Shown here piece by piece: positions 16,434 through 30,650 of a stretch of 64,000 nucleotides of DNA (position 1 is its first letter; each line of letters starts with the position of its first letter). The translations under genes and the position numbers were made by a program. This DNA comes from a virus: UHGV virus genome UHGV-1356548; one strand, given 5' to 3'. The notes beneath the pieces were generated by a model, which was not told the origin of the DNA, did no database searches, and saw only the letters and a program-made list of their open reading frames with translations.

Positions 16434-17717
16434 TCATTCCAGAACCTCCCAAGTGTCTGGGTCAACATTTCGGACGCAGATACCGACAGGGAATTGGTAG
16501 TTGTTGTCTTCTGTCCTTGATTGATATTTGAAGGTGACAAACTTGCCGATCATTTCCTGCATCCTGTCATAGCTACGCTCCTCGTGCGTGCCTTTCATCT
16601 TCATTTTAACAATAACACCTTCCTTGTCAACACAGATAAGAACACCTTCATCATTCTTATCTTTCTCAACGTCAATAACTTTCACCTCTGCGTCGTTGAA
16701 CTTTTTCCATTTCAATGCTTCAGATGTTCGCTGACCGTACTCGTATTTACCGCAGAAATTACGCATGATAGTACCTTCATATCCTTCGGACATGAATATA
16801 CCAACAGATTCTTCGCAATGATCAACTGTGTACGCAAGCTCTGCGTCAACAACCTTGATATGGTCAAGCATCAGAGTGGTAACGGTATCCTCTGCATCCA
16901 TAAGATCCTTGCAGCGTCCAGACTCTGTTTCTGGATCCCACCACACCTTGTCGCTAGGAATATCAAAAATGTGATACTCCAGATCGTAGCTACAGTACCC
17001 ACCGTAACGCAAATCATCACGAACAGGCTCAACATCGACAGGAATATCTACCTTGTTGAAGTTTTTGTATGTTGATAAACCTGCCTTAATTGCTGCATGA
17101 CGGCGTTTTTTATCTGCCTCATAGTCTTTATCGATCTCGGCCTGAATCTCTTCCTGTGTGCGCCACCGTTTAGCAAGAGACACTATTTTCTGCAAAGGAA
17201 GACCATGAATGTATAGTTCCCCATCAAGTTGTTTAATCCCAGTGGTAGAATGGAAAGAACGAAGTTGCTCTAAAAGCTTTCCTTGAATAGGGTAGGACTT
17301 ATTACCACGGGAAATAAATTTAGGCTCACCATTTTGGAAAACAACAAGCAGACGAAGGCCATCTAACTTACGCAAGATCCAGCAAGGTAATTTAAGTGCC
17401 TTGCCACGCTTCAGGTAGTCATGCACCAGCATGGGTAAAAGATCAACACCCTGCTCGCAATCTTCCATGTTTTCAACATACCCCAGACGGACTTGTTTTT
17501 CCCACTTGCTGATAGCCTCAAGCTCGGCCTGTTGCTCAGCTGTAGTCTCGTTGGCACGACCTACGTTCTTAGGTGTGCATACCGTCTCTTTGTACTGCAG
17601 TTTACCATCAAGCTTGCCAAACTCTACGATAACCTTATCACCATCCGTGAATACTTTCCACTGTTGGTAGCTGCCATCTTTATTCAGTGCGTACAGTGTT
17701 GTTTTGATCTGATGCAT
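16434..17717 (-). CDS. ATP-dependent DNA ligase (intact copy)
   Basis: Motif I KLDGLR (KxDGxR), motif III LDGELYIHG, motif IV EGTIMR, motif V LKWKK; 427 aa. Its last 47 codons lie outside the duplicated unit. Confidence 0.7.
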   Translation of the reverse strand: MHQIKTTLYALNKDGSYQQWKVFTDGDKVIVEFGKLDGKLQYKETVCTPKNVGRANETTAEQQAELEAISKWEKQVRLGYVENMEDCEQGVDLLPMLVHDYLKRGKALKLPCWILRKLDGLRLLVVFQNGEPKFISRGNKSYPIQGKLLEQLRSFHSTTGIKQLDGELYIHGLPLQKIVSLAKRWRTQEEIQAEIDKDYEADKKRRHAAIKAGLSTYKNFNKVDIPVDVEPVRDDLRYGGYCSYDLEYHIFDIPSDKVWWDPETESGRCKDLMDAEDTVTTLMLDHIKVVDAELAYTVDHCEESVGIFMSEGYEGTIMRNFCGKYEYGQRTSEALKWKKFNDAEVKVIDVEKDKNDEGVLICVDKEGVIVKMKMKGTHEERSYDRMQEMIGKFVTFKYQSRTEDNNYQFPVGICVRNVDPDTWEVLE

Positions 17718-21235: not shown

Positions 21236-22378
21236 CTATATATCGTGCGTGCCTTTCATCTTCATTTTAACAATAACACCTTCCTTGTCAACACAGATAA
21301 GAACACCTTCATCATTCTTATCTTTCTCAACGTCAATAACTTTCACCTCTGCGTCGTTGAACTTTTTCCATTTCAATGCTTCAGATGTTCGCTGACCGTA
21401 CTCGTATTTACCGCAGAAATTACGCATGATAGTACCTTCATATCCTTCGGACATGAATATACCAACAGATTCTTCGCAATGATCAACTGTGTACGCAAGC
21501 TCTGCGTCAACAACCTTGATATGGTCAAGCATCAGAGTGGTAACGGTATCCTCTGCATCCATAAGATCCTTGCAGCGTCCAGACTCTGTTTCTGGATCCC
21601 ACCACACCTTGTCGCTAGGAATATCAAAAATGTGATACTCCAGATCGTAGCTACAGTACCCACCGTAACGCAAATCATCACGAACAGGCTCAACATCGAC
21701 AGGAATATCTACCTTGTTGAAGTTTTTGTATGTTGATAAACCTGCCTTAATTGCTGCATGACGGCGTTTTTTATCTGCCTCATAGTCTTTATCGATCTCG
21801 GCCTGAATCTCTTCCTGTGTGCGCCACCGTTTAGCAAGAGACACTATTTTCTGCAAAGGAAGACCATGAATGTATAGTTCCCCATCAAGTTGTTTAATCC
21901 CAGTGGTAGAATGGAAAGAACGAAGTTGCTCTAAAAGCTTTCCTTGAATAGGGTAGGACTTATTACCACGGGAAATAAATTTAGGCTCACCATTTTGGAA
22001 AACAACAAGCAGACGAAGGCCATCTAACTTACGCAAGATCCAGCAAGGTAATTTAAGTGCCTTGCCACGCTTCAGGTAGTCATGCACCAGCATGGGTAAA
22101 AGATCAACACCCTGCTCGCAATCTTCCATGTTTTCAACATACCCCAGACGGACTTGTTTTTCCCACTTGCTGATAGCCTCAAGCTCGGCCTGTTGCTCAG
22201 CTGTAGTCTCGTTGGCACGACCTACGTTCTTAGGTGTGCATACCGTCTCTTTGTACTGCAGTTTACCATCAAGCTTGCCAAACTCTACGATAACCTTATC
22301 ACCATCCGTGAATACTTTCCACTGTTGGTAGCTGCCATCTTTATTCAGTGCGTACAGTGTTGTTTTGATCTGATGCAT
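21236..22378 (-). pseudogene. 3'-truncated duplicate of ATP-dependent DNA ligase
   Basis: Identical to residues 1-377 of the 16434-17717 product, then ends ...GTHDI* at the duplication junction, losing the last 47 residues. Confidence 0.6.
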
Positions 22379-27255: not shown

Positions 27256-27329
27256 ACCAGTAAAAACTTAAATATCTGTACTATAAGGATTCGTATGTTT
27301 TATGTTCGCCATGGAACGGATACTATTAA

Positions 27330-27412
27330 CTGTCCGTGATACGGACACTACTGTCCGTCACGCGGACACATCTGCCCGTAATACGGACACTAGCTGTCCG
27401 TGATACGGACAC
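27330..27412. repeat. iteron array: four 19-bp dyad-symmetric repeats
   Basis: CTGTCCGTGATACGGACAC (27330), CTGTCCGTCACGCGGACAC (27351), CTGCCCGTAATACGGACAC (27372), CTGTCCGTGATACGGACAC (27394); spacing 21/21/22 bp; each has inverted half-sites GTCCG...CGGAC; a degenerate half-site ACGGATAC sits at about 27316. Confidence 0.85.
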
Positions 27413-27916
27413 ATAAAGAATATAACTAAAATAACTAAATAATAAAAAAATAAAAGATCTAGTACTTATGGTACTAAGTACATATACTTAACTTATGTAG
27501 AATATACTAGATCCTAAGTACCATGTTTTAAATTTATTACTTACTATGGGCAGTGTCGGCCCTTCATTGGCACTCGCCTACGAGGGGCGAGATGCCGGGC
27601 CTCTTTGGTGCACACAATAACAGAAGTTCATACATACAGGTCTGTTAACATGTGTGGGAGCGAAGCGATAGCGCAGGCCAAAGGCCGAGCACTGATGTGG
27701 ACCACCGACGAAAGCTTGCCAGCGCCGTAAGGAGTCGGTTGAGAGTCTCCCGCGCGAGCTTGGATGAAGTTTATGTGTGGAAACTGACAAGAAGGCCCCT
27801 AAATCGCTCCACAGCTATATAAACTATACCAGGTAATGCAATCGCACCAGTTTGATAGAAAAGCTCGTTACAAAGCGATACAGTTAGTTTTTCTATAACT
27901 TGAAGAGGAGGCAGCT

Positions 27917-28495
27917 ATGGGTTCACGCAAAGATGACCGTGAAAAGATTGCAAAACGTTATCAGAATGAAGAACAGATGGAGAAAACTTTCAAGTGGAAG
28001 CCCGGTTTCCAGCGTAATCATTCTAACGCTCGTGATCGTAAGCATCCGGATAAGTGGCTAACACCGCCAAATGATGGCATGCAGGTTGGGGATGAGAAGG
28101 AGATGTCGCCTGGAAAAGATGGCAACTACATTCGCACTAAGGACGCTGGTCCAAAGGATGACAGCTATCTTGTAGATAAGGTTCTTGATGGTATCAATGT
28201 AGATGTTGACACTGCACGAAACCTTTTTCTTGGGTGGTATCGCACAGGTTTTTTCGACATCAAGGCTATTCGTCGTGTTTGTGATATTAAAAAGTCTGCA
28301 TATGATGACGACTCGTTACATCGCACCCTGAGACAATATTCAGAAAGATATGGTCATCCGGTTATCACTCTTGACGATGTTAACGAAGTGATGTATCATG
28401 CAGAGGTTGTTGCAGGAAGATTTGGTGATGCATATCTTGATATCCTTTCTGCAAAGGATGAGGTAATGTTAAATAAGATTTACTATGAACGCTGA
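27917..28495 (+). CDS. hypothetical protein
   Basis: 192-aa ORF with GAGGAGG RBS. Confidence 0.4.
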   Translation: MGSRKDDREKIAKRYQNEEQMEKTFKWKPGFQRNHSNARDRKHPDKWLTPPNDGMQVGDEKEMSPGKDGNYIRTKDAGPKDDSYLVDKVLDGINVDVDTARNLFLGWYRTGFFDIKAIRRVCDIKKSAYDDDSLHRTLRQYSERYGHPVITLDDVNEVMYHAEVVAGRFGDAYLDILSAKDEVMLNKIYYER

Positions 28496-28505
28496 GGAGC
28501 GCTTA

Positions 28506-28694
28506 ATGAACAACCCGGTAGCAAAGAACTGTAATAAGTTCAACAAGTCTGCAATTCACACTGACAGGAAAAAGAGCTGGTCTCCTGACATTGACGAGGA
28601 GCTTGAGAGTTACTTTGAAGACCTGGTCACTAATGCAGATGAGGTTGCGATTAAAGAATACGCAGACAGGAAGGATAAGGCCGGAATCTGTTGA
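28506..28694 (+). CDS. hypothetical protein
   Basis: Start trimmed to ATG 28506 (RBS GAGGAG) to avoid overlap with the upstream stop; acidic small protein. Confidence 0.3.
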   Translation: MNNPVAKNCNKFNKSAIHTDRKKSWSPDIDEELESYFEDLVTNADEVAIKEYADRKDKAGIC

Positions 28695-28719
28695 CAAAAA
28701 TAGTGTTACCTGATAAGAT
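28691..28719 (+). promoter_or_regulatory. sigma70-like promoter with extended -10
   Basis: TTGACA, 17-bp spacer ending TGA, TAAGAT; upstream of ORF 28771. Confidence 0.5.
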
Positions 28720-28770
28720 CTGCAATATGATGTGATGCAATTTTAACTTACGAGGTCTACAGGTAATGCT

Positions 28771-29013
28771 ATGTTTAAGGTTAAGCTCGTTTTTCGTTCC
28801 ATGAATGAGGATTATTTAGAAGATGAAGGTGAATTTCGTGCACTGGATGATGCAATAGATTTTGCCAACGACTTAGCTTGTATGAATACGGGTTATGGGC
28901 TATGCTGTTGGGATGGTGGTGTTCAGATCGGTGATAGCAAGATCTTCTACTTCTACCCTGAGCCTGATAACAAACAAATTAAGTATGTTTTATTTATTTG
29001 TGCTTTACAATGA
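28771..29013 (+). CDS. hypothetical protein
   Basis: 80-aa ORF downstream of promoter. Confidence 0.35.
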   Translation: MFKVKLVFRSMNEDYLEDEGEFRALDDAIDFANDLACMNTGYGLCCWDGGVQIGDSKIFYFYPEPDNKQIKYVLFICALQ

Positions 29014-29300
29014 GGTTGTTTTCGTGTATCATGATGAATATCCAATTTAAAGATGAATTTGATGGCTTTATCTCCGGATGCTTTGAAACAGGGTTCGGAG
29101 AAGGCTGAGTTCCCCTTAGAGGGCTTGATAGTGCACCACACTTAAAATGGTAGGGGCAGCCAGCACATGACGATGTGACCCCAGCCAACCTGTAATAAGG
29201 TCGAGCCAAAGTGCGGTAATGGGCTCTGGTAACCCACTTGTTGGGTCTTTCTGGTCCAGGACGCTGGACAAGTCGCAGGGAATACCACCCTGCGGCGAAC

Positions 29301-29329
29301 TTGACAATCAGTATTTGCTATGATAAAAT
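29301..29329 (+). promoter_or_regulatory. sigma70-like promoter with extended -10
   Basis: TTGACA (29301-29306), 17-bp spacer ending TGA, TAAAAT (29324-29329); followed by GGAGGA RBS and ATG 29358. Confidence 0.55.
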
Positions 29330-29357
29330 CCACCTATCACGTGATAATGGAGGAAAC

Positions 29358-29696
29358 ATGGCGGATACAACTAAAAAGCGTCGCCGTAGAGGCAGACCTC
29401 TGAAAGAGGAGTCCAACGCCATTCAGCTAGAGAAGAACATCCTTGATATGAAGGAATCTTTTATAGCGATGGTTCCAGAAGCTCACAAAGTTTTAAGAGA
29501 GCTGATGTTGGACCCGAAAACCAAACAAAATATTCGTCAAAGCATTGCAGAGTATGTTCTTGATAAGGCAGACCGAATGCAGGAAGAATATGATGAGATG
29601 TTTGGTGAAGAGGAAGAGGTGGTAGTAGAAGAGGCTGAAAAACCAGCACCTTTTATGCCATTTACCACAGAAATACAACCTGTTAGCAATAGCTAA
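29358..29696 (+). CDS. small basic/acidic protein with AT-hook-like motif
   Basis: Start at ATG 29358 (MADTTKKRRRRGRPLK...); RGRP AT-hook-like N-terminus and acidic C-terminal tail; the longer ORF-track start at 29238 lies upstream of the promoter. Confidence 0.4.
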   Translation: MADTTKKRRRRGRPLKEESNAIQLEKNILDMKESFIAMVPEAHKVLRELMLDPKTKQNIRQSIAEYVLDKADRMQEEYDEMFGEEEEVVVEEAEKPAPFMPFTTEIQPVSNS

Positions 29697-29705
29697 AATA
29701 TTTTC

Positions 29706-29734
29706 TTGACAAACTTTGCTTAACAGTGTAATAT
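29706..29734 (+). promoter_or_regulatory. sigma70-like promoter of tRNA cluster
   Basis: TTGACA (29706-29711), 17-bp spacer, TAATAT (29729-29734), about 60 bp upstream of the first tRNA. Confidence 0.5.
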
Positions 29735-29792
29735 TGTAAACATGGTCTCCCACCTTTTCTGGCGGCTAAGGTGTAAAAGAAAGCCACCCAGT

Positions 29793-29867
29793 GCCCTGTT
29801 AGCTTAGTGGATAAAGCAGCGGCCTTCTAAGCCGTTGACACTGGTTCGAGTCCAGTACGGGGTGCCA
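29793..29867 (+). tRNA. tRNA-Arg (anticodon UCU)
   Basis: Cloverleaf by hand: acceptor GCCCTGT/ACGGGGT, D-arm GCTT...AAGC, anticodon loop CTTCTAA, T-loop TTCGAGT, encoded CCA. Confidence 0.75.
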
Positions 29868-29871
29868 AATT

Positions 29872-29958
29872 GGGGAGTTATCCCGTAGGGGTAGCGGTGT
29901 AGACTGTAAATCTATTGTCATTGCGACTCGGGTGGTTCGACTCCACCACTCCCCACCA
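29872..29958 (+). tRNA. tRNA-Tyr (anticodon GUA), class II
   Basis: Acceptor GGGGAGT/ACTCCCC, anticodon loop CTGTAAA, long variable arm resembling E. coli tRNA-Tyr, T-loop TTCGACT, encoded CCA. Confidence 0.8.
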
Positions 29959-30072
29959 AATTTATAGTTTTAAATGCATAAATCATACAGATAATGGCAT
30001 TGATATTTATCGTCGTTTATACTAGTCACTAACTGCTCGAAAATCAGTGTCATTATCAGTATTGTTTATAAA

Positions 30073-30163
30073 TGAGGGTAGGGAGCAATGGTGCTCAAGC
30101 GGTCTTGAAAACCGTCCCGTTGAGGATGACTTGATGATGGTTCGATTCCATTACCCTCAGCCA
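30073..30163 (+). tRNA. tRNA-Ser (anticodon UGA), class II
   Basis: Acceptor TGAGGGT/ACCCTCA, anticodon arm GCGGT-CTTGAAA-ACCGT, long variable arm, T-loop TTCGATT, encoded CCA; 5' boundary +/-1 nt. Confidence 0.7.
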
Positions 30164-30260
30164 TATTGTTGACCTTGTAATTAAGCGAAAGCCGGAAGCA
30201 GAACCGGATTATCAAATGTTACAGTCGTCATCGCCGACTAGCAACATGGTCAACATACTG

Positions 30261-30359
30261 AGCTAGGTAAGCCCTTTGGCAAGGGCGAGGATTTTTAATC
30301 CTGAAAATAGACGAGGTAGTCGTTGAATACATAGGTGGTTCGATTCCATCACCTAGCAC
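30261..30359 (+). tRNA. atypical tRNA-like gene, Lys-type anticodon loop (UUU), oversized variable region
   Basis: Perfect 7-bp acceptor GCTAGGT/ACCTAGC, D-arm GCCC-TTTGGCAA-GGGC, anticodon arm AGGA-TTTTTAA-TCCT, T-arm GGTGG-TTCGATT-CCATC, but 32 nt (with its own GACGA-GGTAG-TCGTT hairpin) between anticodon and T arms; 3' end is CCT not CCA. Confidence 0.4.
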
Positions 30360-30364
30360 CTTTT

Positions 30365-30440
30365 TGCTGATGTAGCACAATTGGTAGTGCAATTGATTTG
30401 TAATCAATAGGTTGCAGGTTCAAGTCCTGCCATCAGCACC
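30365..30440 (+). tRNA. tRNA-Thr (anticodon UGU)
   Basis: Acceptor GCTGATG/CATCAGC, anticodon arm ATTGA-TTTGTAA-TCAAT, T-loop TTCAAGT, encoded CCA. Confidence 0.85.
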
Positions 30441-30441
30441 A

Positions 30442-30516
30442 TGGCCCTGTAGCTGGAAGGTTCAAGCAAGCGACTCATAATCGCCAGACGGTGGTTCAAT
30501 TCCACCCAGGGCCACC
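30442..30516 (+). tRNA. tRNA-Met (anticodon CAU; elongator or Ile-lysidine type)
   Basis: Acceptor GGCCCTG/CAGGGCC with G1-C72 pair, anticodon arm GCGA-CTCATAA-TCGC, T-loop TTCAATT, encoded CCA. Confidence 0.8.
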
Positions 30517-30527
30517 AAATAATAAAT

Positions 30528-30604
30528 ACTCCGCGTAGCTCAGCTTGGTAGAGCGCCTGATTTGGGATCAGGAGGTCGAGTGTTCGAATCACTCCGTGGA
30601 GACC
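30528..30604 (+). tRNA. tRNA-Pro (anticodon UGG)
   Basis: Acceptor CTCCGCG/CGTGGAG with the C1-G72 pair typical of bacterial tRNA-Pro, D-arm GCTC...GAGC, anticodon arm CCTGA-TTTGGGA-TCAGG, T-loop TTCGAAT, encoded CCA. Confidence 0.85.
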
Positions 30605-30650
30605 ACTTTCAGTTATACTTTAAACATATACAAACAAAAGGAACCTTTAA

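Follow-up and report, generated by a model that had tools for sequence, protein, structure and literature searches.

The virus genome UHGV-1356548 was analysed as one stretch of 64,000 nucleotides (nt), hereafter the window, and a preliminary description had singled out positions 29040-29300 as a GC-rich non-coding island that could encode a small RNA or a regulatory leader. The source phage is a Vequintavirus, an rV5-like coliphage: the 1,051 bp around the island are 100% identical to phage I29 and 99.4% identical to rV5, whose annotation (NC_011041) holds no coding sequence between gp071 (window 28771-29013) and the promoter P74. This promoter forms the 3' boundary of the island and lies outside the RNA described here; it is followed by the open reading frame (ORF) ORF74 and a cluster of tRNA genes (Table 1). 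The strong promoter that had been placed at 29301 from its TTGACA-N17-TAAAAT elements is indeed P74 of rV5. The content of guanine plus cytosine (GC) is 0.55 in 29100-29299 compared with 0.37-0.44 in the flanks, and 0.551 for 29105-29300 compared with 0.436 for the whole window, which confirms the island for the part from 29105; the roughly 65 nt at the left end of the interval (29040-29105) are not GC-rich.

The plus strand, described as free of ORFs, carries only short ones across the island (36 amino acids (aa) at 28998-29108, 30 aa at 29053-29145 and 34 aa at 29219-29323), a TTG-started frame at 29238-29696 being merely an upstream extension of ORF74, and the overlapping short ORFs described for the minus strand are present (three, of 62-71 aa). 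Close relatives differ in the island by insertions or deletions (indels) of +1 and +3 nt, with total lengths of 197, 198, 199 and 201 nt, and this variation argues against coding. The predicted fold energy is mildly unusual (z = -2.4 for 29040-29300 and z = -1.7 for 29105-29300). As these z-scores are modest, the case for an RNA rests on comparative evidence.

A BLAST search of the island against 50,697 phage records matched 988. Full-length Vequintavirus matches made up 119 of these, and approximately 870 were short matches (32-47 nt, 88-97% identity) to window 29181-29223, nearly all at unannotated spots, in T4-like phages of Escherichia, Shigella, Klebsiella, Yersinia, Salmonella and Citrobacter, and also in the N4-like Klebsiella phage Pylas and a 44-kb siphovirus. 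Scans of IMG/VR and JGI metagenomes with one pattern and then with a looser one yielded about 90 loci in 28 sequence clusters, many from uncultured phages of 15-90 kb, and queries from two environmental lineages added further T4-like phages of Enterobacter, Citrobacter, Aeromonas and Erwinia as well as Vibrio phages of 60 kb and 130 kb. Overall, about 1,000 phage records carry the element, spanning Vequintavirus, Tevenvirinae including T4, N4-like, Dhillonvirus-like and Vibrio phages and a 359-kb contig, and a core of ~40 nt is almost identical across T4-like, N4-like, Vibrio and many uncultured phages. Comparison with related phages had been proposed beforehand, with lack of conservation to count against an RNA; the core turned out to be conserved even across unrelated phage families.

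A covariance model of this core, R1, was built from a 43-column alignment of 42 distinct sequences, among them that of the window. R1 finds a single copy in the window (29183-29225, 66.7 bits, E = 1.5e-21; next best 13 bits) and no other copy there, including at the look-alike modules M1 and M3, and the core pattern matches the window once and none of 100 shuffles. Independently of the R1 seed, BLAST ties window 29181-29223 to T4-like phages at E = 6e-10 (2.3-Gb database). In the loci that we fetched (given below by their L numbers), R1 makes 95 matches of 38-68 bits, with one copy per phage locus except for tandem second copies in L048/L069/L062 and L067. Two identical weak R1 matches elsewhere in the window (16847-16888 and 21508-21549; 13.2 bits, chance level) lie on an exact repeat whose copies are ~4.66 kb apart, presumably a duplicated coding gene segment.

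The core was not found in 5,426 complete E. coli genomes, and in 185,579 bacterial and archaeal species genomes (one each) a strict pattern gave 0 matches and a loose pattern 12, which scored 14-26 bits with R1, the level of chance. Within the collections searched, only phages have the element, and all of its isolate carriers are members of lytic groups (T4-like, rV5-like, N4-like and Dhillonvirus-like). The Rfam scan that had been recommended produced no family match: the island reaches no gathering score in Rfam 15, scans at E <= 10 of 27300-29800 and of 29100-29305 (a 206-nt query) returned only noise (microRNA, small nucleolar RNA and long non-coding RNA), nine homologous loci gave tRNAs only, and neither ARAGORN nor Rfam RF00005 detected a tRNA or transfer-messenger RNA in 29040-29300.

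In the window the core occupies 78 nt (29153-29230) and consists of a hairpin (Pa/Pb), a three-way junction (Pc/P2/P3) that holds about 25 invariant bases (A-CCUGUAANAAGG-UC...GGUAA), and a pseudoknot. Read from 5' to 3', the plan of the family begins with Pa, which encloses a 5' internal loop and usually the Pb hairpin, and continues with Pc, which closes the three-way junction, an invariant A, and P2 (CCN-GNRNNA-N'GG, usually CCU-GUAAUA-AGG). After UC and one or two further nucleotides come P3, with an outer G-C pair, a second pair and a variable loop, then the invariant GGUAA and the 3' strand of Pc, in which a single purine is often bulged; 0-13 nt further on, a strand pairs with the Pa internal loop to form the pseudoknot. 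The family core was defined as A-CCN-GNRNNA-N'GG-UC-(N)(N)-[G N ... N C]-GGUAA closed by a covarying Pc. Window 29183-29225 conforms to it, and the 5' internal loop of the upstream hairpin pairs just 3' of Pc, as elsewhere in the family.

Table 1. Features of the island and its surroundings in window coordinates.
Feature	Position	Strand	Remarks
Candidate sigma-70 promoter, TTTACA-N17-TATCAT	29004-29032	+	10/12 consensus matches; unannotated in rV5
H0, long imperfect 5' hairpin (GGCUUUAUCUCCGGAUGC...GGGUUCGGAGAAGGCU)	29064-29106	+	minimum free energy (MFE) and centroid fold; Vequintavirus-specific
M1, 5' peripheral module	29108-29152	+	~45 nt; H1, CUUGAUAGUGC, H2, A/U-rich linker
H1, CCCC-UUAG-AGGG	29112-29123	+	part of M1
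H2, AGUG-CACCA-CACU	29130-29142	+	part of M1
Pa, GGGG/CCCC	29153-29156 with 29179-29182	+	core hairpin
Pa internal loop	29157-29163	+	holds pseudoknot 5' strand GCCAG (29159-29163)
Pb, CACAU/AUGUG, loop GACG	29164-29168 with 29173-29177	+	core hairpin
Pc	29183-29187 with 29220 and 29222-29225	+	G29221 bulged
A29188	29188	+	unpaired, invariant A
P2, CCU-GUAAUA-AGG	29189-29200	+	followed by junction UCGA
P3, GC-CAAAGU-GC	29205-29214	+	junction hairpin
GGUAA	29215-29219	+	invariant
Pseudoknot 3' strand, CUGGU	29226-29230	+	pairs with GCCAG (29159-29163)
H4, ACCCA-CUUGU-UGGGU	29232-29246	+	MFE and centroid folds
H5, GGUCCAG-GACG-CUGGAC	29253-29269	+	MFE and centroid folds
H6, CGCAGGG-AAUACCA-CCCUGCG	29274-29294	+	MFE and centroid folds; only loop varies
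Promoter P74, TTGACA-N17-TAAAAT	29301-29329	+	11/12 consensus matches; annotated in rV5; serves ORF74 and tRNA cluster
ORF74	29358-29696	+	downstream of P74
tRNA cluster, seven tRNA genes	29793-30605	+	downstream of ORF74; ARAGORN 7, Rfam 5

When RNAalifold was run on the Vequintavirinae copies as aligned by MAFFT alone, Pc and several hairpins were recovered but the variable stems were mis-aligned; for this reason a hand-curated alignment was used (A1: 32 sequences from 17 lineages, gaps written as N so that MAFFT kept the columns). In A1, 99.6% of 702 cells pair, a share inflated by the hand-fitting discussed below; double-sided changes occur in 23 of the 31 pairs, and 64 additional pair types are seen. 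The covariation score of 0.576 was matched by none of 500 column shuffles (0.130 +/- 0.012) and fell to 0.02-0.08 when partners were slid by 1-3 columns. Double-sided changes affect all six pairs of Pa and six of the eight pairs of Pb across the 32 sequences, Pc covaries at 5/5 pairs, and CG, UA and GC all occur as the second pair of P3. In L027, for example, Pa is replaced by GGAAC/GUUCC and Pb by CUACG/CGUAG in compensatory fashion. The invariance of P2 in the copies found by pattern was imposed by the search pattern; in Vibrio phage 1.012.O, which was found by BLAST, P2 is CCA/UGG, a clean compensatory change. A1 contains 33 G·U cells compared with 3 non-pairs, which places the constraint on the plus strand, the same strand as the flanking genes.

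Cognate and non-cognate strands were also compared for Pc and for the pseudoknot, in tests that are independent of the hand-chosen strands. For Pc, the duplex energy between the two 9-nt stretches that flank the core was -4.5 kcal/mol for cognate and -3.3 kcal/mol for non-cognate pairs, with 6 of 20,000 permutations as good. For the pseudoknot, the best ungapped helix was taken between the Pa internal loop, as set by Pa/Pb only, and the 20 nt after Pc; the score was 12.1 for cognate and 9.1 for non-cognate partners, and none of ~37,000 derangements of the 17 lineages reached the cognate mean. In the window lineage, GCCAG/CUGGU scores higher than any non-cognate pairing with strands of the other 16 lineages. 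Elsewhere the two strands read CUCCGG/CCGGAG, GUGAGGG/CCCUUAC, GGGUA/UACCC, GGGAG/CUCCC, GCCUA/UAGGU or CACAC/GUGUG, depending on the lineage.

T4 itself carries the motif. In its reference genome (NC_000866) it lies at 64858-64900 (L095 1359-1401, minus strand; 65.2 bits), within the N-terminal 30-codon extension of vs.8, which is annotated there as 219 aa starting at 64912. In RB32, where the spot of the core is between Ip4 and vs.8, vs.8 has 189 aa and the frame of the extension contains a TAG; judging from these sequences, the T4 extension is probably spurious and masks the RNA motif. In several phage records the motif is overlain by short annotated 'hypothetical proteins'. The core lies between denV and regB in a T4 deletion mutant, and the hairpin just upstream of the core differs between rV5 and T4 by compensatory changes. 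Throughout the Tevenvirinae the motif lies ~6 kb from the tRNAs and continues into a conserved 3' extension, whose end is 15-20 nt short of the vs.8 start codon. This extension (e.g. L003 2545-2590 and L007 1541-1590) displays GGA in hairpin loops, as AUGGA(C/U) and GCC-ANGGAAY-GGC, just before the vs.8 ribosome-binding site, an arrangement that in sequence is reminiscent of CsrA-type sites. The motif and vs.8 also appear in the record of the Avunavirus Av-05, where horizontal transfer was considered and rejected: because phiC120, a T4-like phage from the same laboratory, has the segment (NC_025830 107674-108495, L028) at 100% identity, the record probably reflects a chimeric assembly and gives no evidence of transfer.

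Outside the core, the peripheral hairpins are lineage-specific, and the window has M1 on the 5' side and a 3' module of H4-H6 (29232-29294, plus strand). Two Vequintavirinae lineages with flanking genes just ~75% identical share M1 at nearly 100% conservation, and its sequence, being invariant, offers no covariation; a module of the form CCC-WUAGA-GGG-CUUGAWAGUGC recurs 3' of the core in the L027 lineage. H4 and H5 carry compensatory changes in the Vequintavirus locus L080 (to UCCCA/UGGGA and GCUCAG/CUGAGC, respectively). The second of the two lineages (L019, L027, L086 and L091) is without H0 and H6, and since a promoter takes the place of H0 in L027/L019, H0 lies outside the shared RNA. Within the window, GUUCC(CC) at 29110-29116 can pair with the 5' strand of Pa (29153-29157) instead of 29178-29182, and in the L027 lineage the strands competing for the Pa 5' strand are both GUUCC; this alternative pairing could be a conformational switch or a folding intermediate.

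A candidate promoter lies upstream of the window copy, at 29004-29032, and is identical in the Vequintavirus loci L001, L002, L032 and L074 (TATTAT in L080); by its sequence, transcription would start near 29039-29041, almost exactly at the left boundary given in the preliminary description. The promoter and terminator scan of the window showed no U-tract or intrinsic terminator after the RNA, so its 3' end, if discrete, must arise by processing. In the L027/L019 lineage a dedicated TTGACA-N17-TATACT promoter stands about 35 nt upstream of the RNA and the ORF74 promoter directly after it, which is what an independent small-RNA gene looks like. Intrinsic terminators occur 45-89 nt past the core in L083 and L087, and the next element downstream of the motif is a promoter both in the window and in L006. 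The latter (Escherichia phage EcoPhCCP1, 1552-1680; relatives L026, L039 and L043) has the motif directly followed by a TTGACA-N17-GATACT promoter, after which comes a stretch of ~70 nt with CACCUCCU, which resembles the 16S anti-Shine-Dalgarno, and then a strong intrinsic terminator, together a candidate small RNA gene.

In almost every lineage outside the Tevenvirinae, tRNA genes on the same strand lie 46-720 nt from the motif, which in Vibrio phage 1.012.O follows tRNA-Tyr by about 120 nt and in L083 and L051 starts 5-22 nt past a tRNA 3' end. Many copies sit in non-coding stretches of 200-700 nt or ahead of tRNAs, and the motif always points the same way as the genes and tRNAs around it. 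Five other Vequintavirinae genera have tRNA genes at the position upstream of their ORF74 homologue, and KB57, PVP-SE1, Av-05 (ORF74 locus), DU_PP_I and Hena1 showed no motif within 1.5 kb of that homologue. The RNA thus behaves as a patchily occurring, accessory component of the tRNA cluster. No protein family is common to the neighbours of the motif: vs.8, a terminase-ATPase-like candidate trigger of Avs2 with no known connection to RNA, occurs beside it only in T4-likes, and ORF74 and gp071 only in rV5-likes. Pfam and PHROGs gave no function for the neighbour proteins.

Taken together, the comparative evidence indicates that the island encodes a plus-strand structured non-coding RNA of about 190-260 nt, which is very probably a real member of a conserved structured-RNA family. 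The family is widespread among phages, pseudoknotted, structurally well supported and present even in T4, and it appears to be new. Of the two roles originally suggested, small RNA or regulatory leader, a structured RNA is upheld by the conserved core, the covariation, the tRNA neighbourhood and the dedicated promoter in a relative, and 'leader' suits only the T4-like copies.

Seen together, the contexts suit an RNA that is self-contained more than one that regulates a particular gene, and a trans-acting RNA is therefore favoured; the dedicated promoter, the terminators, the downstream promoters and the lack of a shared neighbour protein speak for a stand-alone gene rather than a leader. Our preferred explanation in its entirety, a stable, trans-acting binder from a phage-only family, is offered tentatively. 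The RNA would be transcribed with or beside the tRNA genes, from the candidate promoter at 29004 and/or by P75 read-through, and would accumulate as a discrete stable molecule that acts in trans. Its rigid invariant junction would present a binding surface for a conserved gammaproteobacterial host factor, either a protein or an RNA such as tRNA, and the RNA might work as a decoy, sponge or cofactor that aids virulent phages in the manner of accessory tRNAs and pseudo-ToxI. The part of this explanation in which a stable trans-acting RNA binds a host factor through its invariant junction is speculative.

Several points weigh against this explanation and the evidence behind it. A1 was hand-fitted to the proposed structure with helices chosen in advance, which inflates the percentage of paired cells, and the sequence of the window belongs to the seed of the model that scores it. 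The pseudoknot of T4-proper (group A) has only 3 bp and is no better than non-cognate or chance pairing. All Tevenvirinae have the motif immediately 5' of vs.8 or one gene upstream, as a leader would be, and invariant junction bases are equally typical of ribozymes and of riboswitch aptamers. The discrete stable RNA and its binding partner are both things that we infer from sequence. Finally, no description of the motif was found in the literature searched, which largely leaves out subscription journals, so that a prior description is possible.

Among known phage RNAs, pseudo-ToxI of the rV5-like phage PhiTE is a pseudoknotted RNA that mimics a type III antitoxin (PMC3475682). The motif resembles it in being accessory and patchy, in occurring in rV5-like virulent phages in the neighbourhood of tRNA clusters, and in a possible anti-defence logic, whereas pseudo-ToxI consists of tandem 36-nt repeats copying an RNA of bacteria or plasmids and the motif is a single unit of ~80 nt, only occasionally doubled. 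The features of ToxI-type RNAs (tandem direct repeats of ~34-45 nt, a bacterial or plasmid homologue beside a gene for a ToxN-family toxin) were not found, the core occurring once in the window and no genuine bacterial member having been detected. A hairpin of ACCU/AGGU followed by AAGUGC may be a further, short resemblance to pseudo-ToxI. ToxI-like sequences are present in 80 records of phages of Klebsiella, Salmonella, Escherichia, Pectobacterium and Vibrio, including Certrevirus relatives of rV5. The two such loci that we viewed (MF979560 143739-143809 and OP586623 66806-66844) lie beside or just past a tRNA cluster, and in Certrevirus DU_PP_I the ToxI-like sequence is about 2 kb downstream of the ORF74 homologue. 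Their position beside tRNA clusters shows that this neighbourhood hosts RNA counter-defence elements.

The large ornate RNAs GOLLD and ROOL are often tRNA-adjacent in phages and prophages (PMC12286853), and like them the motif is an orphan, highly structured, pseudoknotted, phage-associated and tRNA-adjacent RNA; unlike it, they are 5-10 times larger, come from other host phyla and are curated in Rfam, where the island matches neither. The preliminary description had invoked the stable RNAs that T4 encodes near its tRNA cluster. The likeness to rnaC and rnaD (species 1 and 2), small stable RNAs co-transcribed with tRNAs at the tRNA cluster of a virulent coliphage, is one of setting and does not extend to homology: with filters off, R1 matched only 64858-64900 in NC_000866 63500-74500 and scored nothing above 9 bits at rnaC/rnaD, rnaC ends in a tRNA-like T-arm that the motif lacks, sequence and structure show no relation, and the true T4 copy lies 6 kb away, upstream of vs.8. 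A resemblance of the P2 loop to a tRNA-Tyr anticodon loop (UGUAA) was also considered, and it is weakened by the variants GUGAAA, GGAAUA and GUAGNA, which fit a GNR-NN-A loop. Further possible resemblances, to twister, SRP Alu UGUAAU, the RNase P J11/12 and the 23S GAC loop, find no support in Rfam, and the P3 loop is variable.

The same fold might instead found a new RNA class specific to virulent gammaproteobacterial phages, an idea we regard as rather doubtful. Such a class could be a new self-cleaving fold, modelled as a double pseudoknot with the three-way junction as its active site, or an RNA that serves as a decoy and thereby disables a host factor or a defence system directed at tRNA or translation. 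If it were true, T4 itself would carry an element that was overlooked because the reference annotation buries the motif in the vs.8 ORF.

Orphan structured RNAs this invariant, pseudoknotted and broadly distributed have repeatedly proved to be ribozymes, riboswitches or protein-sequestering RNAs. Here the family is confined to virulent phages, with therapeutic-candidate rV5-like and Klebsiella phages among them, and shares the tRNA neighbourhood with RNA counter-defence elements (accessory tRNAs, pseudo-ToxI), so that its partner or activity could bring to light a new level of conflict between phage and host or of RNA processing by phages. R1 and the coordinates given here permit the element to be annotated, and mis-annotated small ORFs to be corrected, in hundreds of phage genomes.

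The alternative that survives best, which we nevertheless judge unlikely, is that the motif is a new class of self-cleaving ribozyme, or a processing signal for RNase P or RNase E, that cuts polycistronic transcripts and thereby releases tRNAs or separates upstream mRNA from the RNAs downstream. A compact pseudoknotted fold with invariant junction nucleotides would suit this role, as would the tandem copies, the varied but always co-directional positions in operons and tRNA arrays, and the 5-22 nt spacing after tRNAs in L083 and L051. The order of strands in the window (Pa5'-PK5'-Pb hairpin-Pa3'-[Pc domain]-PK3') is also the nested double-pseudoknot order of ribozymes like that of hepatitis delta virus (HDV) and of theta ribozymes (stem A 5', B 5', hairpin, A 3', domain, B 3'), a topology that alone does not confer membership; the comparison was made with the HDV fold and with a published descriptor. 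According to that descriptor, HDV-like ribozymes have the catalytic C first in J4/2, a conserved core around P1.1/P3 and a variable P4, and theta ribozymes, which provide a precedent for tRNA-adjacent phage ribozymes, occur in gut phages within +/-5 nt of tRNA ends (PMC10879173). In the window the equivalent of J4/2, the linker from Pc3' to PK3', is 0 nt long, and elsewhere its first base is U, A or G, so that the hallmark C is absent; the invariant bases lie in the equivalent of P4, the domain that is variable and dispensable in HDV-like ribozymes. Nor does the spacing agree, tRNAs generally being 46-720 nt away rather than within +/-5 nt, and the hosts are Gammaproteobacteria as opposed to Bacteroidota or Bacillota. 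Membership of the HDV-like or theta ribozymes was rejected on the lack of an Rfam HDV-type match, the lack of the conserved C and the conservation of the wrong domain. Against a ribozyme of any class stand the absence of an Rfam ribozyme match even at E <= 10 and the usually single copy per genome.

A cis-acting leader, with a riboswitch-like aptamer for a metabolite, ion or protein that controls downstream read-through or translation, is quite unlikely for the family as a whole and at its strongest for the T4-like copies. Its targets would be vs.8 in T4-likes and ORF74 with the tRNAs in rV5-likes. A three-way junction and pseudoknot with an invariant junction is classic aptamer architecture; the synteny of motif and vs.8 holds across Tevenvirinae genera, with the 3' extension stopping just short of the start codon; terminators directly follow the motif in L083 and L087; some riboswitches likewise occur in tandem; and the GUUCC(CC) alternative to Pa in rV5-likes could be a switch. 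These copies nevertheless share no downstream gene or pathway: what follows is vs.8, a promoter, tRNAs, a terminator or long non-coding sequence, and only within the Tevenvirinae is the position that of a generic riboswitch. In the window, L027 and L006 a promoter separates the motif from the next gene, and many copies stand in long non-coding stretches or before tRNAs. No conserved alternative pairing was seen between the aptamer 3' strands and a terminator or ribosome-binding site, and absence from all bacterial genomes searched would be unusual for a metabolite sensor.

It is very unlikely that the element acts as DNA, be it a recombination or shuffling cassette (like T4-type promoter-early stem-loops), a homing target or a mobile remnant that spread horizontally. 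Patchy occurrence across unrelated phages with a near-identical 43-nt core, the frequent abutment on early promoters, and a deletion junction inside the 3' extension of the element in the T4 mutant are what such an element might show. Compensatory stem changes around a fixed core, however, point to selection on the fold and not to recent transfer; on the opposite strand the 33 G·U cells would turn into A·C mismatches, so that only the transcribed strand is under the constraint; and the orientation always follows flanking genes and tRNAs, with no flanking repeats and no associated endonuclease or transposase. A chance GC-rich spacer or an unannotated small protein gene, to which the annotated 'hypothetical proteins', the T4 vs.8 ORF over the motif and the modest fold z-scores might point, is already refuted by the comparative data, given the +1/+3 nt indels in relatives, the RB32 stop in the frame of the vs.8 extension, the lack of conservation of the annotated small ORFs in the L027 lineage, and a cross-family conservation and covariation that exclude noise.

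Three further features of the window lie outside this RNA. The first GC-rich non-coding island, 27545-27805 (GC up to 0.535, fold z -2.37), is matched in Vequintavirus alone (119 records at 88-100% identity); it gave nothing across families or with R1, is unrelated to the RNA family, and may be a separate lineage-specific RNA. At 27327-27412, just downstream of a GntR-like gene annotated as 'replication initiation protein' (gp075) in rV5, four head-to-tail units of 21-22 nt each contain the palindrome CTGTCCGTGATACGGACAC, an array that resembles operators or iterons. Within the tRNA cluster, ARAGORN calls a 99-nt tRNA with a four-base anticodon (atcc) at 30262-30360, to which Rfam assigns only 35.5 bits; the locus is annotated as tRNA-Lys in phage EmilHeitz and left unannotated in rV5, and may represent an unusual or intron-containing tRNA.

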